A stretch of DNA of 64,000 bases from Fibrobacterota bacterium (GCA_043753995.1 JAYUVP010000249.1:39684-103683); one strand, 5' to 3'; shown: positions 10,838-56,525, counted from the stretch's first letter. Notes: generated by a model from the letters alone, not told the origin. Numbers and translations are program-made.

Positions 10838-11758
10838 CTAATGGGTTGAAGCTGGCGTCGAAGTGCGTCCCGCTTGGGCTCGCTTCAATTGTCGCAGCAT
10901 ATAGTGCAAGGATTCCGAGGAATAGCCGTGCAGCAGCAATCGGAAACCTGCGCGTAAAGTGGAAAGCGGCAACATGGGGTGGCGATTGTTCACTCGCCAC
11001 AAACGCGAATCGTCGTCTAGCAAAGTCGAGACATATATTCCAATTGTTTCGTCGAGTTGCAGGGAATTCGAAGCCCGCCAAAAGTCATTGTCGGAAAGTA
11101 GGAACTGGAAAATCGGAGTATAAATCTCGATGGCGGTTTCGACGTCCATGAAATTATGCCAGGAGTCGGGCAATTCTTCGAATTCGAAAGGCCCGTCGGT
11201 AATGGCTTGCAAGTTTATCGTCGTGACGGCATGCAAAACCTTGCCTTCTTTCTGCAAGGTTTGATTCAGGCGAATGATGAAATTGAAGAGATTGATATCA
11301 TGAAACAGGAAAAGGTGGTCTTTCACATCGGCCAGTCGCTTGGGCTTGAGTGGGTTGAGTGGAATATCGACCCCGCTATTGTCTCGAATGAATTCGAGAA
11401 TTTCGGAACCAATGTGGAAATGCCTCATGATCAGCAAATTCGCTTCGCGGCTGGCAAAATACCGGAGTCCCAAATAAATGAGGTGATGCAAAAGCCGTGA
11501 CGACTTGAAAGCAGAAGGAAAGGGTGTTTTCAGCACCATAATTAGGCAAATCAAGGTGCGCATGATGGGCCGGAGCAGGGGCAAAAGGAATTGCCGAGTC
11601 TTGGATTGCAGCCCAAACAGCAAGGCGCCCTTCACTTCGGGATCTATGGGCGTAGAATTGTCGAGAAACAAAGCTTGGGTAGGCAGCGGATCTTCCGGAT
11701 CATGCTTCAGCCCGTTGAAATAACTTTGATACCGGGTATGGCGCGTATTTTCAGTCAT
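10838..11758 (-). CDS. Hypothetical protein, last gene of the lipid-tailoring operon
   Basis: 306-aa ORF whose start overlaps the stop of the upstream KASIII-fusion gene at 11758. No recognisable motifs. Noticeably more AT-rich codon usage than its neighbours. Confidence 0.4.
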   Translation of the reverse strand: MTENTRHTRYQSYFNGLKHDPEDPLPTQALFLDNSTPIDPEVKGALLFGLQSKTRQFLLPLLRPIMRTLICLIMVLKTPFPSAFKSSRLLHHLIYLGLRYFASREANLLIMRHFHIGSEILEFIRDNSGVDIPLNPLKPKRLADVKDHLFLFHDINLFNFIIRLNQTLQKEGKVLHAVTTINLQAITDGPFEFEELPDSWHNFMDVETAIEIYTPIFQFLLSDNDFWRASNSLQLDETIGIYVSTLLDDDSRLWRVNNRHPMLPLSTLRAGFRLLLHGYSSESLHYMLRQLKRAQAGRTSTPASTH

Positions 11759-13635
11759 TAGTAATTGCCTATTTCTTCGAGTTGCAACCGGTAGAGGCGT
11801 GCCGTGGTTTTGGCTGCTTTTACGATTTCATCGGCAAGCATTGGGGTCAAGGGTAAAAGTTTCATCGCCGTATGCATTTCTTCGAGGTGATGCTCGTCAT
11901 TGTGACCGTGATAGAGAAGAAAGGACACCGCATCGGAACTCAGTTGAAGGGCCCTTTGGATTTTCTCGCCCCAAGCCTTGGCCAGGTTTTTTCCAAGTCC
12001 TTCGATGATAAAAACCGAGCCTAGCATGTGAAAAGGATTTTCCCTTCCGGCCTGGTGAAACATATAAGCGGAAAAGGCCTCGGATCCAATATTCTTGGGA
12101 TGGGAAAGTATGTCCCCGCGTTCGCCCCCGGAGGCGACATAGTTGGCTTCGAGCATGCGGAAATCGCGGTGCTCATCCCAGGAATGCTTGAGATAGAGAG
12201 AGCGCAATTCAAAATGCTCCGTGGTGATATTCGAGGCCGCTTTGGAAATCCAGCGACTGCCCTCCATGACTTGCTGGCGCAGGTTGAGAAGCAATTCCCT
12301 GTAGTCGGATCGGGTTAAGTTTCCGGTCTCGATTTTGTGGATGAGGGATAACTTGCTTAGTCCCAATTCGAAATCCGACCACACCAGGAAGAGGCGACGG
12401 AAAAGGGAGGCCAGTAAATCCTCGCCCGGCTGAAGCGGGATGTCGCTCGGAGTGGCGGATATTTCTTGTTGCGCCGGTAACAATGATTTTTTTTCCGTTG
12501 GCGATTCGCCGACTACGGTCAATAGCATAAAACTGGTGATAAAGCGACCGCTCTCGGGGACTTGGCAAAGGATTTTCTGCCCGGATTGAAGCCGTCCCGA
12601 TTGCCATAGTTCTTCGAGCATGATCAACAGGGAGGCCGCGCCTGTATTGCCCTTGTGATATAGGTTGGTGAACCACTTATGCGCAGGAATGTCGGCCAGG
12701 CATTTCTGCAATAGGTCGACGATTTGATCCTTGAAGACATGCGAGGAATAGTGACAAAGAAACCAGTCGAAATCGGGTTTGAGCTTGCCCTCTTCGATAA
12801 GCGAGAGATAATGCGACACACCCAAGGGGACGATTTTGTCGAGCATGGCGAGATCTTGTCTTAGGGTAAACAGACCTTGCCGAACGGCGTCACCATAATT
12901 CGCCATTTCTCCCGTGGTAACCCGTATGCTTCCGTCTTCGGATTTTTCACCGCCGGCATACATGCAAACATCCAGGCTATCGGCATGTGATTTCAAGTCT
13001 ATCCACTCGATACGGAGGGATAGGCCACTTTCCTTGGGCCGGTCTTGCAGAAGCGCGGCGCCCGCACCATCCGACAACATCCAGCGTAAAAATTCGGTGT
13101 CGAGCGGTATGCGCTTCTCATTCTGAAAGCTGTCTAGTTCTTCGAGTATCGGGGCCCGGAATTGACGGCTGGGAAATTCGCTGCCGCAAACCATGCCGGT
13201 CTTGTGCTTGCCGCAGGCAATGGCGTGATAGGCCCCTTGAAGCGCGGACATGACGCTCGCGCAAACACCTTGAAAAGAGGCGACATCGCAGCAGGCGATC
13301 TTGGCTTCGCCTTGCACCATGCTCGAAAAGCCGGGTACGAAGAGATCGCCTTGGGTGGTGGCGGTGGCCAAATAGTCAATACCCTTGGCGTCGATGGAGG
13401 AGTCTTTGAGGGCGGCGTGAATGGCGAGGGAAGCCATTTGCGCATTGCGATGTGTGGGTTTGCCATTTTCGTCGAGAGCATAATGGCGGGTTTCGATGCG
13501 ATTGAGTTTGAGCACTCGCTTTTTCGCGATCGATGGCTTTCCTCCCACGAGTCCGAGTCGCTTCTCGGCGGCTTCGGAGTCTAGCGCGGGTCCAGGAAGA
13601 AAGGCTCCGAGCGAAGTGATATAAACGGGTCGCAT
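11758..13635 (-). CDS. FabH-like 3-oxoacyl-ACP synthase III (KASIII) N-terminal domain fused to a C-terminal heme-oxygenase-like (TenA/PqqC/CADD-type, putative di-iron oxidase) domain
   Basis: Residues 1-~370 have the KASIII thiolase fold pattern: MRPVYITSLGAFLP, DYLATATTQGD, KIACCDVASFQGVCASVMSALQGA, CHYSSHVFKD. The C-terminal ~230 aa are helical with E/H/D clusters (WDEHRDF, IIEGLG, LLYHGHNDEHHLEE) reminiscent of heme-oxygenase-like di-iron enzymes. This domain assignment is inference. Confidence 0.6.
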   Translation of the reverse strand: MRPVYITSLGAFLPGPALDSEAAEKRLGLVGGKPSIAKKRVLKLNRIETRHYALDENGKPTHRNAQMASLAIHAALKDSSIDAKGIDYLATATTQGDLFVPGFSSMVQGEAKIACCDVASFQGVCASVMSALQGAYHAIACGKHKTGMVCGSEFPSRQFRAPILEELDSFQNEKRIPLDTEFLRWMLSDGAGAALLQDRPKESGLSLRIEWIDLKSHADSLDVCMYAGGEKSEDGSIRVTTGEMANYGDAVRQGLFTLRQDLAMLDKIVPLGVSHYLSLIEEGKLKPDFDWFLCHYSSHVFKDQIVDLLQKCLADIPAHKWFTNLYHKGNTGAASLLIMLEELWQSGRLQSGQKILCQVPESGRFITSFMLLTVVGESPTEKKSLLPAQQEISATPSDIPLQPGEDLLASLFRRLFLVWSDFELGLSKLSLIHKIETGNLTRSDYRELLLNLRQQVMEGSRWISKAASNITTEHFELRSLYLKHSWDEHRDFRMLEANYVASGGERGDILSHPKNIGSEAFSAYMFHQAGRENPFHMLGSVFIIEGLGKNLAKAWGEKIQRALQLSSDAVSFLLYHGHNDEHHLEEMHTAMKLLPLTPMLADEIVKAAKTTARLYRLQLEEIGNY

Positions 13636-13649
13636 GAATGTCCTGAGGT

Positions 13650-14582
13650 TTAGACGGGCGAAGGGGAATGGGCAGGTGCAGGAGCTTGCAAGGAATCGGA
13701 TCGGCGAAAATCGAAAGTTCGATAGCGGCGAACGAAATGCTGTAAGACGAAAATTTTCAAGAAGTAAAAGGCGAGACTAGGCTCATTCAATTGGGGATGG
13801 ATCCAATGACGTAGGCGATCGTGTTCCTTAGGCCATTGCGACCAATGCATGTTGATATTGCGGTGATGGACAAGATGATAACCGTGATTAAAGGTGATGC
13901 GGTTCAGCCAAACGCCGACGAAATTTCGGCTGGAATCATAGGGGTGATGGGGGGCTGTGTGATGATGTTGAAAATAGCCGGTGCCTACCATGGCCAAAAC
14001 GCCGAAGGCTTGCGGCAAGAGTAGGGCATAGGCGGTGGTCTTCGCGTCGATTCGCCAGAGATAAAGGGTCAAGGTAAGCCAAGCGGCGATTTGCAGCGAC
14101 CAAAAAAGGCCGAGCCGAAATCCCGAGGTGTTCCGAGGTTTCGCCATCAAGGAAAGCCAATAAAGGAAGCTTGCCCGAAAGTAAACCCTGACTCCATGCG
14201 CGAGATAACGAAAGAACTGCAAAAAATTATTGTGATGGGAATAACGGTAGGTGTAAGTGTAATCGTCGCTGCTGTTGGCATAACGGTGGTGATTGGCATT
14301 GTGCGTCGCTTTCCAGGCATAGCAGCCATCAAAGCGGTAGAGGGTGAAGAGGAATTCGATGGCGCGATTGGCCAACCTGGAGCGGAAAAAGGGCCAATGG
14401 CCGTGACAATGCTGAATGCAGCCGACCACATAGGTGATTAAAGCGGTGAGCACCGAAAGCCACAGGCGCGGCCCTATCAGGAAGTGCCAAGTCACGAGTA
14501 GCGGATAAACAGCCAAGACGCCAAGGCAGCGAAGGTCTTGTTTGTTTCTAAGGCCTAGAACGGAAGAAGACGCCTGCGGCAT
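13650..14582 (-). CDS. Membrane fatty-acid desaturase family protein (FA_desaturase-type histidine boxes)
   Basis: Multiple TM segments plus three His boxes: HCHGH, HNANHH, HGYHLVHH. Confidence 0.7.
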   Translation of the reverse strand: MPQASSSVLGLRNKQDLRCLGVLAVYPLLVTWHFLIGPRLWLSVLTALITYVVGCIQHCHGHWPFFRSRLANRAIEFLFTLYRFDGCYAWKATHNANHHRYANSSDDYTYTYRYSHHNNFLQFFRYLAHGVRVYFRASFLYWLSLMAKPRNTSGFRLGLFWSLQIAAWLTLTLYLWRIDAKTTAYALLLPQAFGVLAMVGTGYFQHHHTAPHHPYDSSRNFVGVWLNRITFNHGYHLVHHRNINMHWSQWPKEHDRLRHWIHPQLNEPSLAFYFLKIFVLQHFVRRYRTFDFRRSDSLQAPAPAHSPSPV

Positions 14583-14585
14583 GAC

Positions 14586-15350
14586 TTATTCCGCCGGGCT
14601 ATGCGCGCGACGACGGTAGCCCGAGGCCAGCCAGCGGTCAAGCCAGGGCGTCCAGAAGCCGAAATTGCGTGTCGCCTTGCGGTGGTGGGTGCCATGGCGC
14701 CAATTGTTTTCCAGAAAACTCGCGCCTTGAGTGTGGGTTGGCCAGGAGAAATTGGCATGCCCGAAAGTATTGGCAGTCATGCTGATAGCCGGCCAAAGCA
14801 TGATGGCGAGGATGTCGAAGTCATGCACAAGCATGATGAGAATCATGGTTCCGCTATAGAGTAAGGCCTCGAACCAGTGAAAGCTAAGGCTACTGAAAGG
14901 CGTAGTGGTCACGCTGTAATGATGCACGGAATGCACACGACGAAAAAGGAAAGGTCTATGCAATAACCAATGGCAGGAAAAGAAATAAAGCTCATTCCAA
15001 GCGGCGAAGAGAAGCAAGTCGCCGAGTGCGCGTACTAGGGAAAAGTCTTTCCATAAAATGGTGAGCATTCCATGCTCTTCCAATTTGAGCGCTAAAACCG
15101 CGAAGAAACTGAGAAAAAGCATGGCACTCATGGACTTCCGAATTTCATGGCCTATTTGACCCGCCTTGATTGGGCGGTTGTCGATATAAAATCCCAGTTT
15201 CCGTTTGATCAGAACGTCACGAATGAAAAGGAAAGATATGGCGGACAAGGAAAAATAAGCCACCAAAAAACCCGCAATATGCCAGGCATAGTATTCGGGC
15301 CAACTCAGACTATGCGACAGCGTTTGCAGGGCGCCGAAGTCGAGCATCAC
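14586..15350 (-). CDS. Fatty acid hydroxylase / sterol desaturase superfamily protein (paralogue 2)
   Basis: His boxes HWLLH, HSVHH, HGTHH embedded in TM helices. Paralogous to 15347..16117. Stop/start overlap with its neighbours. Confidence 0.7.
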   Translation of the reverse strand: MMLDFGALQTLSHSLSWPEYYAWHIAGFLVAYFSLSAISFLFIRDVLIKRKLGFYIDNRPIKAGQIGHEIRKSMSAMLFLSFFAVLALKLEEHGMLTILWKDFSLVRALGDLLLFAAWNELYFFSCHWLLHRPFLFRRVHSVHHYSVTTTPFSSLSFHWFEALLYSGTMILIMLVHDFDILAIMLWPAISMTANTFGHANFSWPTHTQGASFLENNWRHGTHHRKATRNFGFWTPWLDRWLASGYRRRAHSPAE

Positions 15351-16117
15351 GATTTCTCCAAGGGCTCGTCATAATTGAAGCGGGCCGAACGCGTCCGGAA
15401 AGTTTCGTCGAACCAGGGAAAGGCAAAACCGTAATTGCCCTTGATATGGGTGTGATGCAAGGTGTGTCGACGGCAAGAAGAGAAAAGATGATTCAAGGCG
15501 AGCTTGGGAAAAACGGCATAATTCATATGGCCGATATTGTTCATGAAAAGACTCAAAGCCGGGAAGAGAATGATGGCTCCCATGCTCAGAGGCGCGAAGG
15601 CCATATAGGTCACCATGACGCTGCTCAGCAAGACGGCTTCGAACCAGTGAAAGCTATAGGTCGAAAAGGGAGTGGGCACAACCGAAAGATGGTGATGCCG
15701 ATGCACATGTCGGTAAAACCAGGGTAGGTGCAAGAGATAATGCGAGGCATAGAAATGAACTTCATTCCATAAGGTGAGCAGAATGAGATCGAGGACTAGA
15801 CGCCAGGGTGAATGAATCCAATCGATGTGAATCAGGCCCAGCCGCTGCAAGCCCAAGGTCAATCCACCATAAGCGCCGAAGACGAGAATGGAGATTAAGG
15901 AAAGTCTCACTTCACGCGTGATTTGCCGGGGTGGAATGGGGCGTGAATCGATGACGCGGCCAATTTTGAAAGTCGGAAGGACTTTTTGGGTGAGCTGAAG
16001 CGTGATAAAAGCCAGGGCGAAGTAAATGAAAGCAAAACCGAGTGCAACTAAGGCGGCAATTTGCCAGAGCCTAAGTTCGAACATGAAATCGCGTAGTCCG
16101 ATTTGCAAGGCCGTCAT
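15347..16117 (-). CDS. Fatty acid hydroxylase / sterol desaturase superfamily protein (paralogue 1)
   Basis: His boxes HYLLH, HVHRHHH, HTLHHTH. Shared motif FSTYSFHWFEAVLLS vs FSSLSFHWFEALLYS in paralogue 2. Confidence 0.7.
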   Translation of the reverse strand: MTALQIGLRDFMFELRLWQIAALVALGFAFIYFALAFITLQLTQKVLPTFKIGRVIDSRPIPPRQITREVRLSLISILVFGAYGGLTLGLQRLGLIHIDWIHSPWRLVLDLILLTLWNEVHFYASHYLLHLPWFYRHVHRHHHLSVVPTPFSTYSFHWFEAVLLSSVMVTYMAFAPLSMGAIILFPALSLFMNNIGHMNYAVFPKLALNHLFSSCRRHTLHHTHIKGNYGFAFPWFDETFRTRSARFNYDEPLEKS

Positions 16118-16356
16118 GCTGCGCTTTCTAGGCGAAGTATCACATCGCCAATGGTGGCGGCGGCCATCAATTCTTCCAAAGGGATTTCAGCCAGGCCGCT
16201 TTGATGCAGTTCATACTCCAATTCGAGAGCGCTTAAAGAGTCGAGCCCTAAATCCTTTTTCAAGGACATATCATGGCTCAGGGATTCGACTGGGCGATGG
16301 GAGACTCGGCTGATGGCTTGCATCACCTTGATTTCAATAGCAGGCATACGGGTCAA
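16114..16356 (-). CDS. Acyl carrier protein
   Basis: 80 aa with the phosphopantetheine attachment motif DLGLDSL. Start overlaps the KAS stop and its stop overlaps the hydroxylase start (ATGA). Confidence 0.75.
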   Translation of the reverse strand: MTRMPAIEIKVMQAISRVSHRPVESLSHDMSLKKDLGLDSLSALELEYELHQSGLAEIPLEELMAAATIGDVILRLESAA

Positions 16357-17567
16357 TCTTGATGACGCGAAAAAAGGAGGGAAACATTATTCGAGCCGAA
16401 ACCGAAAGAATTCTTGAGGATGTTTCGCAATGGCGCATGTTGATTCGCCGATTCAGTCGCTGTCATACCTTCCTGAAGGTGAAAGGCTTGCGGCAATTGC
16501 TGCTTCATCAAGGCTTGGACGCATAGAATGGATTCGAGGATACCACAAGCCCCAAGACTATGTCCGATTTGGTTTTTTGGAGCCACCACGAGCTTGCCGC
16601 CGAGTTCCTTGCCAAATACCGAATGCATGCCGAGATATTCGACTTCATCATTCTTCAGGGTACCGGTGCCATGCGCGCAAATGGCATCGATATCTTTGGC
16701 CTCTATTCCGGCGCAAGCTAAGGCTTTGTGCATGACGGCAATAATATCGCTCGCATCGGGCTTCGGTGCGACTGGATGATATGCACCTGAATTCTGTGCC
16801 ACGCCGGAAAGCTTTGCCAAGATCGGTGCGCCACGCCTGCGCGCCGACTCTGGTGATTCAAGTATAAGGAAGCCAGCTCCCTCGGCGAGTATAAAGCCGT
16901 CGCGCTCCGGGTGAAAGGAGCGTCCCGGCTGCAGGGGATCGCGTTGGGCGCTGAGCACTTTCAATTGCTTATAAGCATGATAATTGAAGGGTGAAAGCGG
17001 GGCTTCTGCGCCGCCCACCAAAGCGATGTCCCATTGCCCAGTAGCGATTTTCCAAAAGCCTTCAGCAAGGGCATTTGCGCTTGAGGAGCAGGCCGTAGAG
17101 ATGCAGAGGTTCGGACCGGTAATGCCGGTTTGTTGGGCTATCCATGACCCCAGGGCACTGGGCATCACCTTGGGGACGGTGAAGGGATGTATCGCGCGCA
17201 TGCCTTCTTGCAAGGCTTTGGCGATCATTTCTTCATGAAAGTCCAGACCACCGAGACCACTGCCCAGGCAAATGCCGATGCGATAGTCGGAAGTGTCGCC
17301 GGACAAGCCCGCTTGATCCAAAGCCTCGCGGGCAGCGATGATACCTAAGTGTACGCAGCGAGCAGAGCGAGCGAGAATTTCGGGTGGTAGTCGCTTGGCG
17401 ACATCGATATGGACCTTGCCAACCAAAACCGGATCGATAGCAAAACCGTCCTGAAATGAGAATTGGGCTTTGCCGGAAGACATTTCATCCCAAAAAGCAT
17501 CTACTCCGCAGGCGCGGCCGACGAGCGCACCCAAGCCGGTGATGACAGGAAAGGTTACCATCAACAA
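16353..17567 (-). CDS. Beta-ketoacyl-ACP synthase (FabF/FabB-like KAS I/II)
   Basis: 404 aa. Active-site Cys motif ISTACSSSANALAEG. His motifs (AHGTGT, IGHSLGA) in the expected order. Confidence 0.85.
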   Translation of the reverse strand: MLMVTFPVITGLGALVGRACGVDAFWDEMSSGKAQFSFQDGFAIDPVLVGKVHIDVAKRLPPEILARSARCVHLGIIAAREALDQAGLSGDTSDYRIGICLGSGLGGLDFHEEMIAKALQEGMRAIHPFTVPKVMPSALGSWIAQQTGITGPNLCISTACSSSANALAEGFWKIATGQWDIALVGGAEAPLSPFNYHAYKQLKVLSAQRDPLQPGRSFHPERDGFILAEGAGFLILESPESARRRGAPILAKLSGVAQNSGAYHPVAPKPDASDIIAVMHKALACAGIEAKDIDAICAHGTGTLKNDEVEYLGMHSVFGKELGGKLVVAPKNQIGHSLGACGILESILCVQALMKQQLPQAFHLQEGMTATESANQHAPLRNILKNSFGFGSNNVSLLFSRHQD

Positions 17568-17576
17568 CCCCTCAAA

Positions 17577-18158
17577 TCATTGCTCTTGCTCGGGCATATC
17601 GAATAAAAAACCGATCTGAAAAAACATCTCTAAGTTGGCTGACGCCCCACGCCTAACAAACGAGTTATTGTTCGATCCCATGGGAATAAAAATCTCGATA
17701 GCATTTCCGGCGGCCATCTTAAAGTGACCCGCCTGAAAATGGAATTTGCCCCCTGGTGCAATGAGGGCGTCCTCGGATTTGAAGGAACCATAGTAGTCGC
17801 GCTCACGATAATACCGATATCCGAATTCGATTTCAGGAGTAAAGCCCCAGCGGTAGCCCTGCCAAACGCTATAGCCAAAATAGATGGACGGGCTAAGGTA
17901 TTTGCTTGTCTTCGACTGGGTCTGAATTTGAATCAAATTGATAATTCCCGGCTTTAAACCGAATTCAAAGCGATCCACATGTCTTTCCAAAAAAAGTTCG
18001 ATGGGAAAAATGCCAACCGTGCCTCCGCTATAGCTACGGTCAACCTGGGATTCTCCAGCGGAGGACAAAATGAAACCGACTTGATTATCATAGGCGCTTG
18101 CTCCAGAGTGAAACAAGGGCAAGGTGCTGAGCAGGAATAAAAACCGCGGTAGGAACAT
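17577..18158 (-). CDS. Hypothetical secreted protein (Tyr/Gly-rich, possibly beta-rich), first gene of the lipid operon
   Basis: The ORF extends to 18251, but MFLPRFLFLLSTLPLFHSGASA at 18158 is a plausible signal peptide and avoids overlap with the divergent ferredoxin. No family assignment. Confidence 0.4.
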   Translation of the reverse strand: MFLPRFLFLLSTLPLFHSGASAYDNQVGFILSSAGESQVDRSYSGGTVGIFPIELFLERHVDRFEFGLKPGIINLIQIQTQSKTSKYLSPSIYFGYSVWQGYRWGFTPEIEFGYRYYRERDYYGSFKSEDALIAPGGKFHFQAGHFKMAAGNAIEIFIPMGSNNNSFVRRGASANLEMFFQIGFLFDMPEQEQ

Positions 18159-18183
18159 GGGGTGCAAAGTAATATTCCCAATC

Positions 18184-18483
18184 ATGAGCCAGCCTTCGTC
18201 ATCCCATGATTCTTGTCGCCAAAAGCCGGGTCTTTTCAAACCCATTGTCAATCATTCGCGCTGTGAAGGCAAAAGCGATTGCGTGGTGGTCTGTCCGGTG
18301 AATGTTTTCGAAGTGCGCCGCATCGAAGATTCTGATTTCGCGGCACTAGGCATACTGGCCAAGGTCAAAGTCATGGTCCATGGCAGAAAAACGGCCTATA
18401 CGCCCCGCGCCGAGGCTTGCGAAGCCTGCGGCCTATGCGTCACGGCTTGTCCGGAAAAGGCGATTCGCCTGATGAAGGTTTAA
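18184..18483 (+). CDS. 2x[4Fe-4S] ferredoxin
   Basis: Two Cys clusters: CEGKSDCVVVCP and CEACGLCVTACP. Divergently transcribed from the lipid operon. A start at MSQPSS (18184) is preferred over the listed 18124. Confidence 0.65.
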   Translation: MSQPSSSHDSCRQKPGLFKPIVNHSRCEGKSDCVVVCPVNVFEVRRIEDSDFAALGILAKVKVMVHGRKTAYTPRAEACEACGLCVTACPEKAIRLMKV

Positions 18484-18489: not shown

Positions 18490-21400
18490 TTAATTCGGCG
18501 GGGTTCCCCATTTGAACCAGGCATTCAAGGTGGCCAGTTCGGTGGGAGTGAGTTGCACACCCGAAGCGGGCATATATCCTGCGGATAGGAATGGACGATT
18601 GATGCGATCGTAAACCTTGCTTCGCGTCAAGGAGTCGGCGACAGTCGTGGAATCGCAAACCGCGGTGGCGTTCACCTTCCCGGGCCCGTGGCATGTCAGG
18701 CAGTAGGTGTTTAGAACGGTGGAAACGCCGGAGTTAAAAGGCGGCAAAACCGTATTGCGAGCCAAGGCATGAATAGGCCCGTCCGTGGCGGTGGCCGTGA
18801 TGGTTGTCGTGCCGGTGATCATTTTCAAGACTTGAACTTGGGTGGAGCTCACCACTTTCAAAACCGCAGGATTGCTGCTGGTCAAGGCATAGGTCTTGAG
18901 CGTGGTGGAATCTGGCGCGAAAACCGCTGTGCTTTGCACCGTCGTTCCCACCACGAGCCGTGGCAGGGTTAGGGCGATTCCCGTAGCCACCACATTCCCC
19001 ACGGTTACATTGAAATTCGCTGTTTTCGCCCCGTCGGTCGAAGTCACGCGCCATACCGAATTCCCCGCCGCTGTTCCCGATAATTGAGTTGTTCCTACCA
19101 GAGTGGCACCTGTACCTGACACCAAGGAAAGGGTATAGCCCTTATTTGTCGCCGATGACGGCGTCCAGGATAAAGTTGGCGCCTTGGTACTGCCAACAAA
19201 AAGGCTGAGGTTAGCCGCGCTCACGCTCTGCACCGGGACCGGGCCCACGACCACGGTGAAGGTGTCCTTGACCGTGGGATTTTGCACCGAAGTCGCGACA
19301 ATCTTCACCGAGCCCAATGCGGATGCCGTCACCTTGCCTCCGGGCAAAACCGTGACGCCCAAGCCCAAGGAGGTGAGGGTATAGCTCTTACTCGTCGCCT
19401 CCTCAGGAAAGGCGCCTACCTGTGGAATCACGGTGTCGCCGACTTGAAAGGAAGTGTCTGCTCCGACCAAGCTGTCGACGGGCCACGGAATCACGGTCAC
19501 TTTAAAGGACTTGGATTTCGCTCCTTCTTCGGTGGTCAATCCGACATTGGCCGATCCCACGTAGGCGCCATGAATTCGAATACCCGTGGGCGTGGTCACT
19601 GTGGTATCGAAGGAAACCAAGCTATAGCCCTTATTGCTCGCATCCCCCGGCGCAAAAGTCACCTTGGGGAATTTCGTGTCGCCAAGCCTCACCGTGTCTT
19701 CCGCCACCGTCACGTTTTGCAAGGGGACGAAATGGGCATTGAGCCAGCCCAGTAAAATGCCCAGCTGGCTGGGAGTCAAGTCGCCTTCAGCCGGCATGCG
19801 ATCCTTGTCGGTTTTCGCGAGTTGCAAGCGCCGTAGCGATTCCGCGCCCTTGATCAAGAAAACGCTGGAGTCTTGCAAGTTGAAAGTAATGGTGGGGCTA
19901 TGGCATTTGCCGCATTTCTCGGTGGTGATGGGCTTAACATGCGCGTCGAATTGCGGCGTCACGGCCATAGCGGTGAAGGTGGCCGTCTTGTCTCCATCTT
20001 CGGCGCGCACCGTGATTTTTGCCGAGCCCAATACCCCGGCCACCAGGCGATTGCCGACCGGTTTGATGGCGGCGCTATTGTCGCTTTCCAAGGTGTAATT
20101 CTTATTGGTGGCGTCATTCGGTAAGAAGACCACTCTGGGCGTGATGGTGTCGCCGAGGGCGATGGCGGTGTCCTTGGCAGAGAGGCTAAGCACCGTTTTC
20201 ACATTGCGGCCCAACCAGAGCAGCATCAAATCGAGATCGCGCTTGTCCATGGTGGTGTCGGCAGGCATATGCGCCGTGTTTCCGAAAGGCAAGGACAATC
20301 GCGCGAGGGCCTTGCTTCCACGGCCGACGAGTACAGCCGAGTCCTGCAGATTGAAGGTAATGGTGGGGCTATGGCATTTGCCACACCACTTCTTGGAAAT
20401 GGGTTGTATATCGGCAAAGGTTGGGCCTCGTACGGTCACCGTAAAGGTGTCCTTTGCTCCGCCGGCAGTTGCGGTAACCGTCACCTGCGCCGAGCCTTCG
20501 GCGCGCAAGGCGAGGCGCTTGCCGACGACACGGACTCGGGTGGTATCATCGCTTGCTATTTCAAATTCGCGCTCGGTGGCATTGGAAGGCATGAAGACGA
20601 TGTTCGGTGTAAGGGTGTCATAAAGCAAACCCGTGGTGTCCACCGCGTCCAGCGCAGTCGGGGCGATGCTCTTGTCGCTAATCGAGAATGAGAAGGTGGC
20701 CTTGGCGCTGCCACGGTTGGCCTGCACCGTCACCTGGGTGCTACCTGCGGCGAGAGCGACGAGGCGAAGCCCGCTCAGCACCTTGGCCTTGGTGGTGTCC
20801 GCTACGATCAATTGCACGCCCTTGTCGGTGGCGCCGTCAGGCTCCAAGGTCGGCGTGACTGTCACGGTATCACCGGTTTTGGCGCCGAGATTCGATACCG
20901 AGATGGAGCTAAGCAAGATCACCTTTTCGGTGATGGTCACTGAGAAAGACATACGGGCCGTGTCGCGATGGGCTCGCACTTCGATAGTGACCTTGCCCGT
21001 ATCACGGCATAGCACGGCATGGCCGCGCGTTCCCGCGCGCAAGGTGTCGACGGCATGCAGGCTGTATTCCTTGTCGGCGGCGGTGTCGGGACGCACGGTC
21101 ACCCGGGCATTCACCGTGTCTCCCGCCTGGCAGTCCAGATCTTCGGCTGTCAGTCGCGTGCGCGCCCTGTCTACCTGCGCCAAGCTGTCTTGATGCGCGA
21201 CACTATCGGCGAGGATGACGCTGTCCTTGCGGGCCTTGACGTCCACCACGGCGCTGTCGCGCTTCTGTCCTTTTTCGGCATAGTCGAAGCGCTTTTCAAA
21301 GGCCACGGCATTGTCTTTCAGCCCCGTGATGACGGCCGAAAAATTGGGCGACACGTTTTCGGGCAAATCGAATTGCACCGTGCTCTGGCCCGGCTTCAAA

Positions 21401-21597
21401 ACAAAGGTTTTGCTGAACAGGGTTTTGCCCGTGTCGAGTCCCTTAGGATAAAGCGAAACCTTCACGCTGTCGAATTTCCCCACCAGAGTGGAATCGAGCT
21501 GGAATTGCAATTCGGTTTTTTCCTTGGGATTGCTCAGGCAGGAAAATAGCCCGAGCAAGACAAAGCCGAGAAGCGAAAGGGAAAGCAGGGTTTTCAT
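18490..21597 (-). CDS. Giant surface lipoprotein with multiple Big_2-type Ig-like domains and three embedded CxxCH (PSCyt1-like cytochrome c) modules
   Basis: True start MKTLLSLSLLGFVLLGLFSC (lipobox) at 21597 overlaps the stop of the upstream gene (TAATG). Repeated Big_2-like segments (for example TLESDNSAAIKPVGNRLVAGVLGSAKITV). WCGKCHSPTITFNLQDS occurs twice, plus CLTCHGPG near the C-terminus, each followed ~40 aa later by MP...W, matching the PSCyt1 pattern. Confidence 0.6.
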   Translation of the reverse strand: MKTLLSLSLLGFVLLGLFSCLSNPKEKTELQFQLDSTLVGKFDSVKVSLYPKGLDTGKTLFSKTFVLKPGQSTVQFDLPENVSPNFSAVITGLKDNAVAFEKRFDYAEKGQKRDSAVVDVKARKDSVILADSVAHQDSLAQVDRARTRLTAEDLDCQAGDTVNARVTVRPDTAADKEYSLHAVDTLRAGTRGHAVLCRDTGKVTIEVRAHRDTARMSFSVTITEKVILLSSISVSNLGAKTGDTVTVTPTLEPDGATDKGVQLIVADTTKAKVLSGLRLVALAAGSTQVTVQANRGSAKATFSFSISDKSIAPTALDAVDTTGLLYDTLTPNIVFMPSNATEREFEIASDDTTRVRVVGKRLALRAEGSAQVTVTATAGGAKDTFTVTVRGPTFADIQPISKKWCGKCHSPTITFNLQDSAVLVGRGSKALARLSLPFGNTAHMPADTTMDKRDLDLMLLWLGRNVKTVLSLSAKDTAIALGDTITPRVVFLPNDATNKNYTLESDNSAAIKPVGNRLVAGVLGSAKITVRAEDGDKTATFTAMAVTPQFDAHVKPITTEKCGKCHSPTITFNLQDSSVFLIKGAESLRRLQLAKTDKDRMPAEGDLTPSQLGILLGWLNAHFVPLQNVTVAEDTVRLGDTKFPKVTFAPGDASNKGYSLVSFDTTVTTPTGIRIHGAYVGSANVGLTTEEGAKSKSFKVTVIPWPVDSLVGADTSFQVGDTVIPQVGAFPEEATSKSYTLTSLGLGVTVLPGGKVTASALGSVKIVATSVQNPTVKDTFTVVVGPVPVQSVSAANLSLFVGSTKAPTLSWTPSSATNKGYTLSLVSGTGATLVGTTQLSGTAAGNSVWRVTSTDGAKTANFNVTVGNVVATGIALTLPRLVVGTTVQSTAVFAPDSTTLKTYALTSSNPAVLKVVSSTQVQVLKMITGTTTITATATDGPIHALARNTVLPPFNSGVSTVLNTYCLTCHGPGKVNATAVCDSTTVADSLTRSKVYDRINRPFLSAGYMPASGVQLTPTELATLNAWFKWGTPPN

Positions 21598-22418
21598 TAT
21601 TTCACCTTGGTCACGACGGTCGTCGTTTGCGTGCCGGGATCGCTCATGAGCATAATGGTGGTGATGCCGACTAGAGTCACCGCAGCTGCACCTCCCGCCA
21701 CCCACAGCCAGGTTTTATTGCCTTTGCCGTCGCCGGAGGTCGCAGCGGCGTTACCCCCCGCCTGAGATGCCGGATCCGAGGTCTTGGCACCTGCCGACCC
21801 AATAACCGCATTAGCTCCCGTGTCAGGCCTCACCTCGATGAGATTACGCCCGGTCGAGTCAATGGGATAGCCGAAAGTCTTCAAGTTCTTGCGTACGCGC
21901 TCGCGCTCGGCCACGCTATCGCTGTCGCTGGCGGTGCGATCATAACGCTTGCGCACCTCACGAAACATGTCCAGAATGGCATCACCCACTTCGAGGTCTT
22001 CCAAATCTTGGCGCGGATCGAGCTTAAGCATTTGATACAGAAAAGATTCTGCCTTGCGACGCGTTCCCATGTCGGCGCCATACACCACACCGAGGTATTT
22101 ATAGATGAAAATGCTGTCTTCCTTGTCGCGAATGCGGCGATCGCGGCGCATGTTTTCCAAAAGGGCGATGAGTTGATCGAAGTCGCCGCCATGATAAAGC
22201 TCTTCCACCGTTTTTTTATCGAGCACGGCTGATTTTTTCAACTTGGTCGCCGAGGTTTTCGCGGGCGACGCAGCGGGGGTGGCCTTGGTCGTGTTCGTTG
22301 AGTTCGCGGTCGTAGTTGCGGGCGTGGCTTTTTCGGGTTGCGGCGTTGCCGACCATGAAGTCATGACCCCAAAAACCGTAAGCGCGAGAAACCCGGCCAA
22401 GGTGCTGAAAAACCTCAT
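21597..22418 (-). CDS. Hypothetical secreted, C-terminally membrane-anchored protein with TPR-like core (module A small subunit)
   Basis: Signal peptide MRFFSTLAGFLALTVFGVMTSWSA, then a Thr/Ala/Pro-rich linker, a conserved core (DSIFIYKYLGVVYGADMGTRRKAESFLYQMLKLDPRQDLEDL) and a C-terminal TM helix (WLWVAGGAAAVTLVGITTIML). Paralogue of 25268..25936. Confidence 0.5.
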   Translation of the reverse strand: MRFFSTLAGFLALTVFGVMTSWSATPQPEKATPATTTANSTNTTKATPAASPAKTSATKLKKSAVLDKKTVEELYHGGDFDQLIALLENMRRDRRIRDKEDSIFIYKYLGVVYGADMGTRRKAESFLYQMLKLDPRQDLEDLEVGDAILDMFREVRKRYDRTASDSDSVAERERVRKNLKTFGYPIDSTGRNLIEVRPDTGANAVIGSAGAKTSDPASQAGGNAAATSGDGKGNKTWLWVAGGAAAVTLVGITTIMLMSDPGTQTTTVVTKVK

Positions 22419-22582
22419 GTGTACACCCCTTTTCACTACGCAAAGGTATCAAAGCGATTCGAACGGCTTCAAAGCATGATACACTTGCGGGGGTGGCTTC
22501 TGCCTCCCCCGGCTTGGCCCGCAAATATCTCCAAGCCCGGTCGGCCTCGCCTTCCCCACCGGCGACCTACCTTTGCCTGCCT

Positions 22583-25150
22583 ATGTTCTCGCCAAATTCA
22601 AATGCGAAGCCCCGCCCCGAAGTGCTGGCTCCCGTCGCCAGCATGGAAATGGCTCAGGCCGCGGTGCAAAACGGCGCGAATGCCATCTATGTGGGCTTTC
22701 CCGGTTTCAATGCGCGGGGCCGCACGCCGGATTTGGATCCCACGGCTTATGCGGAATTGGCCCAGCTCTGCCGCTTTCACGGGGTCAAGGTTTATGTGGC
22801 CCTCAATGTGCTCGTTTTTGAAGACGAGCTCGCCTCCCTCCTCGACACGGCCCGCACCCTCATCGCCTTGGGCATCGATGCCTTCATCGTGCAGGATTTG
22901 GGGGTCGCGCGCCTGTTACGTCGCCTGCATCCGGGCGTGCGCTTGCATGCTTCGACGCAAATGACGGTGACGGCTCCCGAGGCGGTGGCCTTGACCGAGG
23001 ATTTGCATCTGGCGCGATATGTCCTAGCGCGCGAGCTTTCCCTGCAAGACATCGAAGCGGTGCGCCTTGGCACCGATAAAGAGCTGGAAGTCTTCGTGCA
23101 CGGGGCCTTATGCGTTTCCTATTCCGGGCAATGCCTCACTTCCGAAAGCTTCGGAGGACGGTCGGCCAATCGCGGCCAATGCGCGCAAAGCTGCCGGCTC
23201 GACTATGATTTGCTCGTCGACGGAGAAAAGCGAGATTTAGGCGAGAAGCGCTACTTGGTTTCCCCGCAAGATCTCTGCGGCCTCGACGAAGTGCCGGCTC
23301 TCGCCGAATTGGGTGTGAATAGCCTCAAAATCGAAGGCCGCCTCAAGACTCCCGCTTATGTGGCCGCCGCCTCCAAAGCCTATCAAGAGGCCGTGCAGCG
23401 GGCCATGCCTGCGAAGAGCGAGGACGGCATTCCCACCGTCGATGCCTTGTCCGCCAAGGAAGCTCGGCGTGATTTGGCCGTTACTTATTCGCGCGGCTTT
23501 TTCTCAGGTTGGCTTCACGGCGTGGATCATCAAGCCTTGGTACCCGCTACCTTCAGCCATCATCGCGGCCTAGCCCTGGGGCCGGTGCTTCGGCGCGAAG
23601 GCGATGCCGTGCTGGTGGCCGGGCCGCGCCGGCCGCAGCGTGGCGATGGCGTTTTATTCGTGGCCACCGAAGGCATGCCTTCGGATGACGGCGTGGCGGG
23701 CCGGGTTTATGAGGTCGAGTTCGCCCGCGAGGGGAATTGGCTGCGCTTCGACCGTAACTTACCCGTGACGCGCATCGAGGCCGGCTGGGTAGCCTATCTC
23801 AATGATTCTCCGGCCTTAGAGCATGATCTTACCGCCTCCTGGCGGGATCGCGAAACCCAGACCCGAGTCCCAGTCATTGCCGCCGTGCAAGCCATTCCCG
23901 GCGAGCCCTTGCGCCTCACTCTCGACGATGGTCTCCGGCAAGTGACGGTGACGGGCGAGGAACCCCTCCTGCCCGCGCGCAATGCCCCGCTCGATGCCGG
24001 GCAATTAAACGAAGAGCTGGAGCGCATGCAAGGCGAGGGCTTTCAGCTCGAAAGCCTCGACGCCCACATCGCCGGGCCCGTTTTCCTGCACGGCAAGGCC
24101 TTGCGCAAATTGCGCCAAGCCGCTGTCGCCGAATTAAAAGCGGCACGATCCCTGGCCGCTCCTGTGGCGCTGGCCGAGGACGCGGCCGTGCTGTCCTGGA
24201 TGGAAGAACAAGCTGCCGAATTGCGTTCGTCGGCTTCCCTGCCTGCCTACGCCTCCGAGCCTGCACCCACCGCGGCCCCCCGCCTTCATGTGTTGCTGCG
24301 CGAAATCGCCCAGGTCGAAGCCCTGACGCGCTTGGCGGAGAGCGGCGTGCATACGGTTTATCTCGATTTCGAATATGGGCGCGACTATAAACCCGCCCTC
24401 GAAGCCTTGCGCGGCGCGGGAATTCGAGCGGCCTTGGCCACCACGCGCATCATGAAGCCGCTGGAAAAGCACAATCTCACCGTCATCGAAAAACTGCGCC
24501 CTGACGCTGTGCTAGTGCGCAACTTGGCAGCCTTGCAGGCCCTGCGTGCCACGGGACTACCCCTGATCGGCGACTTCAGCCTCAATGCCGCCAATAGCCT
24601 CACCTCGGGGTATTTGCTCGGCAAGGGTTTGCATCGATTGACGCCGAGCTACGATCTCAATCAGGCCCAATTGCTGGACTTGATCGGCGCGGCGGGGGGA
24701 CGTCACTTCGAAGTGACGGTGCATCAATTCTTGCCCGCCTTTCACATGGAGCATTGCGTTTTCGCGGCCTTCCTGAGCCAGGGGCATAGCTTTCGCGATT
24801 GCGGCAAGCCTTGCGAACGCCATCGCCTGGCTTTGCGCGATCATACCGGCGCCGAGCACCCCGTCAAGGCCGATCAAGAATGCCGCAATACCATGTTTCA
24901 TGGCCAACCGCAATCGAGCGCGCGCCTGGTGCCCCAGCTTTTGGCTGCCGGCGTGCGCGACTACCGCGTGGAATTGCTATGGGAAGGACCGGCCGAAATG
25001 GTACGGACCCTGGGGCTTTATCGCGACCTGCTGACCTCGGCTCGACCCGCCGCCGAGGTTTACGCCGAATTGCGCGTGGGCGAGCGCTATGGCGTGAGTG
25101 AAGGTCAATTACACCAAACTTCGGTATGGAAAGACCGGAAAAAGAAATAG
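22583..25150 (+). CDS. Peptidase U32 family protein with two tandem U32 domains (collagenase/PrtC/RlhA-like)
   Basis: First domain: PEVLAPVASMEMAQAAVQNGANAIYVGFPGFNARG...VFVHGALCVSYSGQCLTSESFGGRSANRGQCAQSCR. A second, U32-like half follows (VYLDFEY...HMEHCVFAAFLSQGHSFRDCGKPCERH). The listed ORF start (22493) is probably an N-terminal extension. Confidence 0.8.
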   Translation: MFSPNSNAKPRPEVLAPVASMEMAQAAVQNGANAIYVGFPGFNARGRTPDLDPTAYAELAQLCRFHGVKVYVALNVLVFEDELASLLDTARTLIALGIDAFIVQDLGVARLLRRLHPGVRLHASTQMTVTAPEAVALTEDLHLARYVLARELSLQDIEAVRLGTDKELEVFVHGALCVSYSGQCLTSESFGGRSANRGQCAQSCRLDYDLLVDGEKRDLGEKRYLVSPQDLCGLDEVPALAELGVNSLKIEGRLKTPAYVAAASKAYQEAVQRAMPAKSEDGIPTVDALSAKEARRDLAVTYSRGFFSGWLHGVDHQALVPATFSHHRGLALGPVLRREGDAVLVAGPRRPQRGDGVLFVATEGMPSDDGVAGRVYEVEFAREGNWLRFDRNLPVTRIEAGWVAYLNDSPALEHDLTASWRDRETQTRVPVIAAVQAIPGEPLRLTLDDGLRQVTVTGEEPLLPARNAPLDAGQLNEELERMQGEGFQLESLDAHIAGPVFLHGKALRKLRQAAVAELKAARSLAAPVALAEDAAVLSWMEEQAAELRSSASLPAYASEPAPTAAPRLHVLLREIAQVEALTRLAESGVHTVYLDFEYGRDYKPALEALRGAGIRAALATTRIMKPLEKHNLTVIEKLRPDAVLVRNLAALQALRATGLPLIGDFSLNAANSLTSGYLLGKGLHRLTPSYDLNQAQLLDLIGAAGGRHFEVTVHQFLPAFHMEHCVFAAFLSQGHSFRDCGKPCERHRLALRDHTGAEHPVKADQECRNTMFHGQPQSSARLVPQLLAAGVRDYRVELLWEGPAEMVRTLGLYRDLLTSARPAAEVYAELRVGERYGVSEGQLHQTSVWKDRKKK

Positions 25151-50651: not shown

Positions 50652-52088
50652 CTACACGGTGATTTGCAAGAACTTGAGTACACCCGGGCAGAGGCCCAGG
50701 GCCAGGAGGAGAATGGCTAGCACAGCCATGGCAGCCTTTGAAGCGAAAGACAAAACGATGGCCGGTCGATCGGGCTCCGAGGGGGTCAGGTAGGCCTCCT
50801 TGACCAGCATCATGTAGTAGTAGAAAGAGACCACGGCATTGAGGACGGCTAGGGTAACGAGGATGTAACGTCCCTCCGCAGCAGCGGCGGAGAAGAGCAG
50901 GAATTTGCCGAGGAATCCGGCCAGGGGCGGAATGCCCGCCAGGGAAAACATGCTTAGGGCCAGCAGCGCCGCCAAGGCGGGATTGCGGCGGCCGAGGCCG
51001 CGCAGAGAAGCCATAGTCTCCGGGCCTTCGCGGCCGATAATGCCGATGACGAAGTATAAAGCCACGCTGGTGGCACCATAGGCCACCATATTGTATTGCA
51101 AAGCGACCCGAGCGGAGGTCGCTTCGCCAGTCAAGCCCACGAGGATATAGCCCACCTGGGCGATGGAAGAATAGGCCACGAAGCGCCGCAAATGGGTTTG
51201 CCGCATGGCGCCCAAATTGCCAACGACCATGGAAAGCACAGCCGCAACGGAAAGCACAAAAGTCAGAGAGGGACGAAGGGGGTCGAGCGGTCCCAGGAAG
51301 AGGACAGCCACGGCCGCCACGGCGGTGGCCTTAGAGCCAATGGACAGAAAGGCCATCACCGGAGTGGGCGAGCCTTGATAGACGTCAGGGGCCCACATAT
51401 GCAAAGGGACCATGGCCAGCTTGAAGCCCAAGCCACCCAGAAGCAGGAAGACACCAGCCTGAAGCGGACCACTGCCTGGATTCATGGTGACGGCTTCCAT
51501 TAAGGCGGGGAAACCCAGACTACCGGCCGCGCCATACAGGAAGGACATACCGAAGAGAGTTAGGGCCGAGGAGAATCCGCCCATAAGCACATACTTGGAT
51601 CCCGCCTCGATGGAATCGCCATCCTTGGGTTGGAAGGCGGCTAGAGCATAGAGCGGCAAGGTGGCCAATTCGATACCGATATAAAGCGTGAGAAGATCCT
51701 GGGCCGAGACCACGGCGAACATGCCGAAGGTGCAAAGCAATAGCAAGGCATAAAAAGTGCCGGGACGGGTCAGCAATCCCCGGGCGCTACCGCCTTCGCG
51801 GAAATATCCGGGGGATAAAAGCACGGTCGCAAAGGTCGCGAGCAGGAAGATTTGCTTCCAAAGGCCCGCTTCCGGGGAAATACGATAGCTTCCAACCACG
51901 GTCGTTACGTCCATAGCAATCAGGACTCCCTGAAGCACGAAAACGACGACAAGCCCTAGCCAGGCGACATGGAAAATCCCGCGACCGGACTGGTGGGCTG
52001 CCTTCCCGTCTTGACCCATTTCCAGGGCTAAAACGAGAATAGACAAAGCCAGCATGGCTATCTCGGGAAGGAAGGGCAGAAAATCCAT
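50652..52088 (-). CDS. nuoN: NADH-quinone oxidoreductase subunit N
   Basis: True start MDFLPFLPEIAMLAL; the listed ORF to 52295 is an extension. 14-TM antiporter-like subunit. Last gene of the nuo operon. Confidence 0.85.
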   Translation of the reverse strand: MDFLPFLPEIAMLALSILVLALEMGQDGKAAHQSGRGIFHVAWLGLVVVFVLQGVLIAMDVTTVVGSYRISPEAGLWKQIFLLATFATVLLSPGYFREGGSARGLLTRPGTFYALLLLCTFGMFAVVSAQDLLTLYIGIELATLPLYALAAFQPKDGDSIEAGSKYVLMGGFSSALTLFGMSFLYGAAGSLGFPALMEAVTMNPGSGPLQAGVFLLLGGLGFKLAMVPLHMWAPDVYQGSPTPVMAFLSIGSKATAVAAVAVLFLGPLDPLRPSLTFVLSVAAVLSMVVGNLGAMRQTHLRRFVAYSSIAQVGYILVGLTGEATSARVALQYNMVAYGATSVALYFVIGIIGREGPETMASLRGLGRRNPALAALLALSMFSLAGIPPLAGFLGKFLLFSAAAAEGRYILVTLAVLNAVVSFYYYMMLVKEAYLTPSEPDRPAIVLSFASKAAMAVLAILLLALGLCPGVLKFLQITV

Positions 52089-52095
52089 GAAGGTC

Positions 52096-53616
52096 TTACC
52101 GGTGCAGATTGTTGAGTATGGGCTCAAGAGCTTGATCGACCAAGGAGACGATGGGGCCTGGGTAAAGACCCATGGCAAGGATGCAGAGGAGCAGTAATAC
52201 CACCGGTACCTTTTCGAGAAAGGTGGCATCTGTGAGATGGGAGTTCTCTTCTCGCTCGGGGCCATGCAAAATGGAATTGGTGGCGCGCAGCACATAGACC
52301 GCCGCCAACACGATGGAGCCGATGGCCACTGCCGTTCCCAGGCGGGATAGCAGGCTTTCGGAGGCGAAGCCTCCCAGGAAAATATTCAGCTCAGCCGCGA
52401 AGCCCGCCATGCCTGGAAGGCCTAAAGCGGCGAAACCGGCGATGGCAAAGGTTACGCCGAGAAAGGGCATTTTCGCCATGAGCCCACCCATGTCCGGGAT
52501 ATGCCGAGTATGAGTGCGGGAATAAATCATGCCGATGAGGCAGAAAACGGTGGCCGTGATAAAACCGTGGGCCAGCATTTGCAGCACGGCTCCTCGCAGG
52601 CCAATGGTGGTCATCACCGCGAGACCGACGAAGACTAAACCGCAATGGCTTACCGAAGCATAGGCATTCAAATACTTGAGGTCCTTTTGCTTAATCGCCA
52701 CCACGGCGCCCCAGACTGTGCCCGCAACAGCCAGGACGAGGAAGACGCTCATCCATTGGCTGGCGCCTTCGGGCAGCAAATACATGGCAATGCGCAGGCA
52801 GCCATAACTGCCCAATTTCATATGCACGCCGGCCAGGAGCATGGAAATGGCCGTGGGTGCGGAGGCATGGCCGTCAGGCGACCAAATATGGAAGGGGAAC
52901 ATATTCCCGAGTATGCCGAAGCCCAGGAATAGGGCGGGGAAAGCCCACATCTGAAAAGAGCGATCGAAAGGGATTTGCGAGAGTTCGAGTATGTCGAAGC
53001 TGCGAATGCCGCTCTGAAAGAAAAGCCCGAGTATGCCCACTAGGATGAGAGCGCTTCCGCCCATGAGCATGAGGTTCAACTTCATGGCGGCGTATTCTTT
53101 GCGTCCGCTGCCGAAGAGTCCGATGAGGAGATAGGTGGGAATGAGGGTGAGCTCATTGAAAACGAAAAAGGCGAAAAGATCAAAGGAGATAAAGCTCCCG
53201 AAGACGCCTGCTGCGAGAACCTGGAAGAGGATGAAGAATTCCTTGGTCTTGTCCGTAATATTCCAGCTGGCTATAGTGCCTGTGAAAACAATCACGGCGG
53301 CCAAAACCATGAGGGTCATGGAAATCGCATCCACGCCGATCTGATAATAGATGTTTAAAGACGTGAACCAGGGAAGCTTGGTGGCAAAGGCCAAGGCCGA
53401 TCGGGTCGATCCCACTTCGGCGACAGGCGGATTCATCGCGAAGGCGATGGCCAGAAAGACCACGAGGGCGAGAACGGCAGCATTGGCGGCGAGGCTAAAG
53501 CGGCGAATGGCCTTGGCATTGCCAGCGGGCATGGCCATGAGCACCAAGGCCGAGGCCAGGGGTAATACCCAGGTGAGGGTCAGGAGCGAGCTTCCCATGG
53601 AACCCAATGCGTCCAT
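52096..53616 (-). CDS. nuoM: NADH-quinone oxidoreductase subunit M
   Basis: Start MDALGSMGSSLLTLTWVL overlaps the nuoL stop (ATGA). Antiporter-like family. Positionally between nuoL and nuoN. Confidence 0.85.
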   Translation of the reverse strand: MDALGSMGSSLLTLTWVLPLASALVLMAMPAGNAKAIRRFSLAANAAVLALVVFLAIAFAMNPPVAEVGSTRSALAFATKLPWFTSLNIYYQIGVDAISMTLMVLAAVIVFTGTIASWNITDKTKEFFILFQVLAAGVFGSFISFDLFAFFVFNELTLIPTYLLIGLFGSGRKEYAAMKLNLMLMGGSALILVGILGLFFQSGIRSFDILELSQIPFDRSFQMWAFPALFLGFGILGNMFPFHIWSPDGHASAPTAISMLLAGVHMKLGSYGCLRIAMYLLPEGASQWMSVFLVLAVAGTVWGAVVAIKQKDLKYLNAYASVSHCGLVFVGLAVMTTIGLRGAVLQMLAHGFITATVFCLIGMIYSRTHTRHIPDMGGLMAKMPFLGVTFAIAGFAALGLPGMAGFAAELNIFLGGFASESLLSRLGTAVAIGSIVLAAVYVLRATNSILHGPEREENSHLTDATFLEKVPVVLLLLCILAMGLYPGPIVSLVDQALEPILNNLHR

Positions 53617-56522: not shown

Positions 56523-56525
56523 GAG

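Follow-up and report, generated by a model that had tools for sequence, protein, structure and literature searches.

A ketosynthase fused to a heme-oxygenase-like di-iron domain and paired with a DUF6999 protein: a candidate DarA-independent route of the dialkylresorcinol/cyclohexanedione type in a Fibrobacterota bacterium

In canonical dialkylresorcinol systems, the ketosynthase DarB is paired with the aromatase DarA, whose substrate is a carboxy-cyclohexanedione (carboxy-CHD) and which couples aromatisation with decarboxylation (PMC6836626, PMC13192835); the operons also include an acyl carrier protein (ACP) (PMC6836626). A 2019 review noted that DarB homologues lacking DarA are widespread orphans of considerable interest, with unknown products, and made no mention of partners from the heme-oxygenase-like di-iron (HDO) or DUF6999 families (PMC6836626). 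Here we describe a locus in which both are found. It lies in a stretch of 64,000 nucleotides from a Fibrobacterota bacterium (hereafter the window), where eight minus-strand open reading frames (ORFs) run from 18158 to 10838. The last two encode a 625-aa fusion of a StlD/DarB-type ketosynthase (KS) with an HDO domain (11758-13635, minus strand) and a 306-aa DUF6999 protein (10838-11758, minus strand). An earlier note, made from the sequence alone, had described these genes as a translationally coupled lipid-tailoring operon flanked by a divergent ferredoxin; all eight ORFs are present in the ORF table at the positions given there, and profile searches confirmed the families proposed (KAS, ACP, two FA_hydroxylases, a desaturase and a fusion of KASIII and heme-oxygenase-like domains). 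In our judgement the chances are evenly balanced that the operon encodes a pathway of the dialkylresorcinol/cyclohexanedione (dar) type that dispenses with DarA.

The fusion matches the ACP_syn_III_C and Haem_oxygenas_2 profiles. Residues 1-375 (~12511-13635) constitute a StlD/DarB-type beta-ketosynthase domain, which is followed by a poorly conserved linker (residues ~376-404) and by the HDO domain (residues ~405-625; ~11761-12423). The ketosynthase had previously been described as FabH-like; its KASIII type holds, but the best models are those of the StlD/DarB subfamily and of DarB, not generic FabH. The domain is collinear with the solved StlD structure 5gk0 over residues 3-375 (E 5e-82), and both the Cys-His-Asn triad (C125, H295 and N330) and the conserved Glu (E153) are intact, none of these residues varying among 76 aligned homologues. 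Moreover, canonical, DarA-linked DarBs share 35-47% identity with the KS domains that are associated with HDO, as compared with 34-41% among themselves. As judged from these comparisons, the N-terminal part of the fusion was shown to be a complete StlD/DarB-type ketosynthase that has kept its catalytic residues. A ketosynthase of this type indicates a head-to-head cyclised product, of the cyclohexanedione or resorcinol type, instead of the hydroxy or unsaturated fatty acid or ornithine lipid that had initially been envisaged.

The fold of the HDO domain is predicted with high confidence (pLDDT 93) and is of the heme-oxygenase-like helical kind. H484, E488, D491, E545, H576 and H583 are invariant, D580 is at least 90% conserved, and position 458 is occupied by either E or D; a set of three His and three to four carboxylates, to which we infer metal-ligand roles, is therefore conserved. 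The H-x3-D-x2-H helix, typical of di-iron members of the superfamily, and the glutamates align with 3dde, a structural-genomics protein of unknown function which is the sole sequence match of the domain in the PDB. We came across no account, in the literature searched, of an HDO joined to a ketosynthase in general or to DarB in particular, be it among UndA, BesC, CADD, SznF, HrmI or RohS.

The second core protein matches PF22523 over the entire model (1-275 of 275), with 372 bits against a cut-off of 27. It is the component most evenly conserved across phyla: its homologues in all 80 species loci examined are 49-57% identical to the window protein, whereas the KS and HDO domains drop to 30-39%. 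In the DUF6999 alignment, 66 columns do not vary between phyla, and many of these hold His, Asp, Glu, Arg or Asn, which suggests an enzyme rather than a scaffold. The AF2 model is confident and all-helical (pLDDT 85, pTM 0.85). More than 3000 clusters are obtained at 90% identity, and at 50% the family collapses into a compact group devoid of distant relatives. Two possible origins were rejected by hhalign, namely a diverged DarA (probability 0.2%) and a diverged HDO (0.1%). No mention of DUF6999 was found in the literature searched.

The pair formed by the KS-HDO fusion and DUF6999 was found in at least 578 bacterial species in a scan that took one genome per species; full-length fusions number at least in the hundreds. 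Locus counts cover the best 80 species, which comprise 24 Bacillota (mostly Paenibacillus and Cohnella), 22 Acidobacteriota, 11 Gammaproteobacteria, eight Burkholderiales, six Bacteroidota/Rhodothermales, five Planctomycetota, two Myxococcus, one Bdellovibrionota and one Alphaproteobacteria. The nearest named homologues belong to a Candidatus Tectomicrobia metagenome-assembled genome (MAG). Gene content was counted with hidden Markov models in 81 loci other than that of the window, which represent at least nine phyla or classes. In essentially all of them DUF6999 immediately follows the fusion, which is a single ORF in 77. The core pair stands alone in 42 loci; it is accompanied by an FA_hydroxylase in 14, by an FA_desaturase in 13 and by both in 12, so that a hydroxylase is present in 26 loci and one or both membrane enzymes in 39. 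In 25 loci the core has a desaturase-family gene no more than 1.5 kb away, and in Acidobacteriota this gene sits between the fusion and DUF6999. Conversely, KAS, ACP, the ferredoxin and G1, with which the operon begins in the window, are not in the cluster at any of the 81 loci; the one weak match to KAS (34%, in L060) is encoded ~1.3 kb upstream of the core and in the opposite orientation. The weight that the earlier note had placed on KAS, ACP, the hydroxylases and the desaturase accordingly has to be shifted to the last two genes, which form the conserved core. In other genomes, the genes that come after DUF6999 (toxin, antiporter, M23 peptidase, oxidoreductase, TIR) are mutually unrelated, and a continuation of the cluster beyond DUF6999 was therefore rejected.

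Several loci depart from the common arrangement. On the megaplasmid pTHAF3_a of Pseudoalteromonas sp. THAF3 (L086:6995-9613), the core is split into KS (366 aa), HDO (226 aa) and DUF6999. On the Nostoc flagelliforme plasmid pNFSY08 (L088:7001-9713), the fusion is apparently frameshifted into ORFs of 482 and 167 aa, followed by a short ORF of 209 aa and adjoined by a cytochrome P450 gene; the stretch is unannotated in the gene table of the record, and this copy may be a decaying cluster. In one Acidobacteriota MAG (L005:2345-4266), the fusion and DUF6999 are separated by genes for a GNAT acetyltransferase and for a protein of 445 aa that belongs to no family, and in a Woeseia MAG (L022:10979-12367) the accessory FA_hydroxylase and a PAP2 lipid-phosphatase-type domain are encoded by one ORF. 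A His-rich membrane protein of ~186 aa, without Pfam family, occurs beside the core in Planctomycetota, a Rickettsiales MAG and Pseudoalteromonas (L069:9877-10437, L072:10879-11439, L079:3497-4072 and L086:6436-6993) and may be a further accessory metallo-enzyme.

The closest described systems, the dialkylresorcinol and stilbene pathways darABC, stlCD and brtCD, share with the window a full-length ketosynthase of the same family with the same catalytic residues, presumably fatty-acid-derived substrates and, in the lineage of the window only, a dedicated ACP comparable to DarC. They differ in that tblastn detected no homologue of DarA or StlC, whether in the window or in the loci fetched. The query was a DarA-like protein, the copies from two canonical loci being 36% identical (E 1e-48). 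Of these loci, that on a B. pseudomallei plasmid encodes a DarA-like protein, DarB and an ACP, and that on a Streptomyces plasmid an ACP, DarB, a DarA-like protein and an FAD monooxygenase. Neither an HDO domain nor DUF6999 stands beside the canonical DarBs examined. The listianol cluster is likewise a canonical DarA/DarB system. A putative microcarbonin-type cluster of Microcystis, proposed and experimentally unverified, combines DarAB with two desaturases and an oxygenase (PMC6836626); it resembles the window in associating a DarB-type ketosynthase with membrane tailoring enzymes of the desaturase type, but it carries DarA and a DevBCA exporter and is devoid of HDO and DUF6999. No characterised cluster identical to that of the window was found.

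A DarA-independent pathway might operate as follows. The FabF-like KAS, together with the dedicated ACP, would supply a beta-ketoacyl-ACP, which the KS domain would join head-to-head to a 2-enoyl thioester by Michael addition and Claisen cyclisation, yielding a carboxy-dialkyl-cyclohexanedione as do DarB, StlD and BrtD. The tethered di-iron domain, DUF6999 or both would then replace DarA, O2-dependent oxidative decarboxylation and aromatisation leading to a resorcinol. Formally, the HDO step would be of the UndA/BesC reaction type, with loss of CO2 and of a beta-hydrogen, and further oxidation could also take place. The membrane enzymes of the FA_hydroxylase and FA_desaturase families may subsequently oxidise the ring or the alkyl chains, giving for example a hydroxyquinol, a quinone or unsaturated chains, with the divergent ferredoxin as the likely reductant of the di-iron enzymes. 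The pathway would end in a phenolic or quinoid lipid that resides in the membrane, or in a signal molecule. The view that the operon serves a specialised pathway beyond bulk fatty-acid synthesis, already expressed in the earlier note, is supported; the genes are co-transcribed on this reading, and the proposed route is O2-dependent and fatty-acid-derived. Srs-type phenolic lipid operons, in which a type III polyketide synthase (PKS), a methyltransferase and a hydroxylase produce alkylresorcinols and alkylquinones, offer a parallel: they too are small, widespread across phyla and devoted to a ring-bearing membrane lipid that is made and then oxidised. Their ring-forming enzyme, the type III PKS, and their tailoring enzymes are, however, entirely different.

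A broader and more tentative proposal, which we hold to be possible rather than probable, extends to the whole family. The KS-HDO fusion and DUF6999 might represent a hitherto undescribed, O2-dependent way of finishing head-to-head fatty-acyl cyclisation without DarA, in which DUF6999 would be a catalyst of new fold and the products would be unrecognised phenolic or quinoid membrane lipids or signals, in hundreds of soil and aquatic species from at least nine phyla or classes.

Several observations weigh against a dar-type route. The KS domain falls below the curated cut-offs that define the family, scoring 388 bits against 450 with the StlD/DarB model (NF005293) and 348 against 550 with that of DarB (NF053539), whereas the canonical DarB of B. 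pseudomallei reaches 600 and 501 bits; this is a further difference from the known systems. CADD, to which the HDO domain is structurally closest among characterised proteins, is a self-sacrificing pABA synthase and not a decarboxylase. No role can be assigned to DUF6999. As the search for DarA covered the window and the fetched loci, DarA may be encoded elsewhere in these genomes. Conservation of the ferredoxin and of G1 stops at the closest relative. Finally, every catalytic step is deduced.

Other explanations have to be considered. The ketosynthase might catalyse an acyclic head-to-head condensation, as OleA does, to give a 2-alkyl-3-keto acid, which an UndA-like decarboxylation by the HDO domain would convert into a long-chain internal olefin, enone or ketone. 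The olefin mentioned in the earlier note is retained in this form, as a minority possibility. We consider it unlikely, because the KS domain is collinear with StlD, retains the motifs that are invariant in the family, including E153 and FLRWMLSDGAGA, and is as near to the canonical DarBs as these are to one another. In addition, no OleB-, OleC- or OleD-like gene is found among the nine genes scanned, none of which matches a hydrolase, AMP-ligase or reductase family. The operon could also serve ordinary tailoring of membrane or outer-membrane lipids, such as hydroxy or unsaturated fatty acids, ornithine-lipid-type or lipid-A-type molecules, the hydroxylases and the desaturase then being central. 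This would fit the presence of two FA_hydroxylase paralogues, a desaturase, KAS and ACP, the PAP2 domain fused to the Woeseia hydroxylase, and the position of the block, in a metagenomic contig described below, next to lipid A genes. Yet the fusion and DUF6999 are universal, whereas neither membrane enzyme accompanies them at the loci reduced to the core pair and KAS and ACP occur at none of the other loci; moreover, profile searches detected no OlsA/OlsB-type or lipid A acyltransferase genes in the operon. Such a function is accordingly quite unlikely.

Alternatively, the HDO domain may perform a reaction that does not concern the carboxylate of the KS product, for instance a CADD-like reaction that generates an aromatic unit, or the N- or C-oxygenation of some compound other than a lipid; the ketosynthase would then acylate this unit to give an acylated small molecule outside the dialkylresorcinol and cyclohexanedione classes. 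The proximity to CADD could be read in this way. The Paenibacillus operon, however, consists of the two core genes only and lacks an obvious source of a special substrate, and the recurrent partners are membrane di-iron enzymes of the lipid type, which makes such an assignment very unlikely. It is also conceivable that a KAS-ACP-hydroxylases module and a desaturase-fusion-DUF6999 module are neighbours by chance; indeed, KAS, ACP and the second hydroxylase are confined to a single lineage. This seems extremely improbable, given that gene order and tight coupling are the same in three genomes with differing flanks and that no terminator-like excess occurs within the operon.

If a dar-type role were confirmed, the HDO superfamily would gain a new reaction and its first ketosynthase fusion, and a DUF would acquire a function; a possibly new class of lipids would be added to Acidobacteriota, Paenibacillus, myxobacteria, Lysobacter relatives, Planctomycetota and Bacteroidota. 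The question of what is made by DarB-type ketosynthases that lack an aromatase (PMC6836626) becomes concrete with this locus, which offers a two-gene core small enough for expression and a mechanistic hypothesis, a di-iron HDO in the place of DarA. It also draws attention to DUF6999, an unstudied and extremely conserved family without fold relative.

The remaining genes of the operon, all on the minus strand, precede the core in the order G1, KAS, ACP, FAH1, FAH2 and DES, and the tight coupling claimed for them is real. G1 (17577-18158) encodes an orphan of 193 aa with a signal-peptide-like N-terminus and is separated by 9 nt from KAS (16353-17567), a 404-aa, FabF-like elongating ketosynthase restricted to this lineage. 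KAS has both the N and C ketoacyl-synt domains and the active-site motifs ACSS, HGTGT and GHSLG; it scores 305 bits with the FabF model TIGR03150, under the cut-off of 494. It overlaps by 4 nt with ACP (16114-16356; 77-80 aa), or lies 5 nt from it if ACP starts at ATG 16347. This dedicated carrier protein, a positional analogue of DarC, matches PP-binding with 35 bits and has DSL at residue 39. Overlaps of 4 nt also join ACP to FAH1 (15347-16117; 256 aa) and FAH1 to FAH2 (14586-15350; 254 aa). Both are membrane di-iron enzymes of the FA_hydroxylase family (PF04116; 74 and 67 bits) with histidine boxes, and they are only 35-38% identical to each other. Since the hydroxylases of other loci are closer to FAH1 (35-52%) than to FAH2 (29-38%), FAH1 is, on sequence criteria, the orthologue of the family-wide accessory hydroxylase; FAH2 is a lineage-specific addition. 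DES (13650-14582; 310 aa), a membrane FA_desaturase-family di-iron enzyme (PF00487, 70 bits) with histidine boxes HCHGH, HNANHH and HHTAPHH, lies 3 nt from FAH2 and 14 nt from the fusion, whose stop codon overlaps the start of DUF6999 by 1 nt (-1 nt). Scans for promoters, terminators and Rfam families gave no informative result.

As regards the divergent ferredoxin, its plus-strand ORF spans 18124-18483 and the start is most likely the ATG at 18184, which gives a protein of 99 aa, as in the sister genome L085. This dicluster-type candidate electron donor has Fer4 family matches. Only its second Cys motif, CX2CX2CX3CP, is canonical; the first is CX5CX3CP, with another conserved Cys 16 residues upstream, and a 2x[4Fe-4S] protein is possible. 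About 25 nt (18158-18184) separate the likely starts of G1 and ferredoxin, which hardly leaves space for two promoters. G1 matches no Pfam or NCBIfam family, and a single homologue (66%) was found among 5.8 billion proteins; it is unrelated to the His-rich membrane protein of ~186 aa mentioned above, which adjoins the core in four loci.

The clustering of these genes is conserved in the close relatives, where a block of seven is syntenic. In the sister genome, the divergent ferredoxin is again found beside KAS, at ~100 nt, and is followed by the same seven genes and then by the G1 homologue (L085:8980-9552); the cluster adjoins mnmE-yidC, as in the window. G1 has therefore moved from the 5′ end of the operon to its 3′ end, after DUF6999, remaining attached to the cluster despite the rearrangement; it is 66% identical, as compared with 85-96% for the rest of the operon. 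Amino acid identities to the sister genome amount to 96% for the KS domain, 94% for DUF6999, 93% for the HDO domain, 87% for ACP and 78% for the ferredoxin, and to 90% for the housekeeping proteins MnmE and YidC, which indicates that the core is more strongly constrained than housekeeping genes. In the metagenomic P0122 contig (JGI 3300056388), which is 74% identical, the order KAS-ACP-FAH-FAH-DES-fusion-DUF6999 is kept and the ferredoxin is absent; the block is bordered by divergent fabZ-like/lpxA-like genes on one side and by lpxC on the other, i.e. it is embedded in lipid A biosynthesis genes. The second hydroxylase was found only in the window, the sister genome and this contig. The cluster genes (10838-18158) have a G+C content of 0.47-0.54, as compared with 0.61 for mnmE, 0.58 for the neighbouring cytochrome gene and 0.545, only marginally higher, for yidC; such low values beside the rnpA-yidD-yidC-mnmE block could reflect horizontal acquisition.

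Other features of the window deserve mention. The 1071-aa product of the cytochrome gene just referred to (18490-21705) combines Big_2 Ig-like repeats and several CXXCH motifs with a cytochrome c domain at the C-terminus; it is presumably a multihaem protein of the surface or the periplasm. Positions 3328-5352 encode a protein of 674 aa that contains an eCIS_core domain and is conserved (88%) in the sister genome. The product of 22493-25150 is a peptidase U32 (collagenase-type) protein of 885 aa whose N-terminus gives a weak radical-SAM-like match, and a 1420-aa ORF at 32803-37065 matches no Pfam family at E ≤1e-4. Lastly, the strong positive AT skew (0.22-0.35) at 50652-60609 coincides with a minus-strand operon for membrane subunits of complex I (nuo), which provides an ordinary explanation for it.

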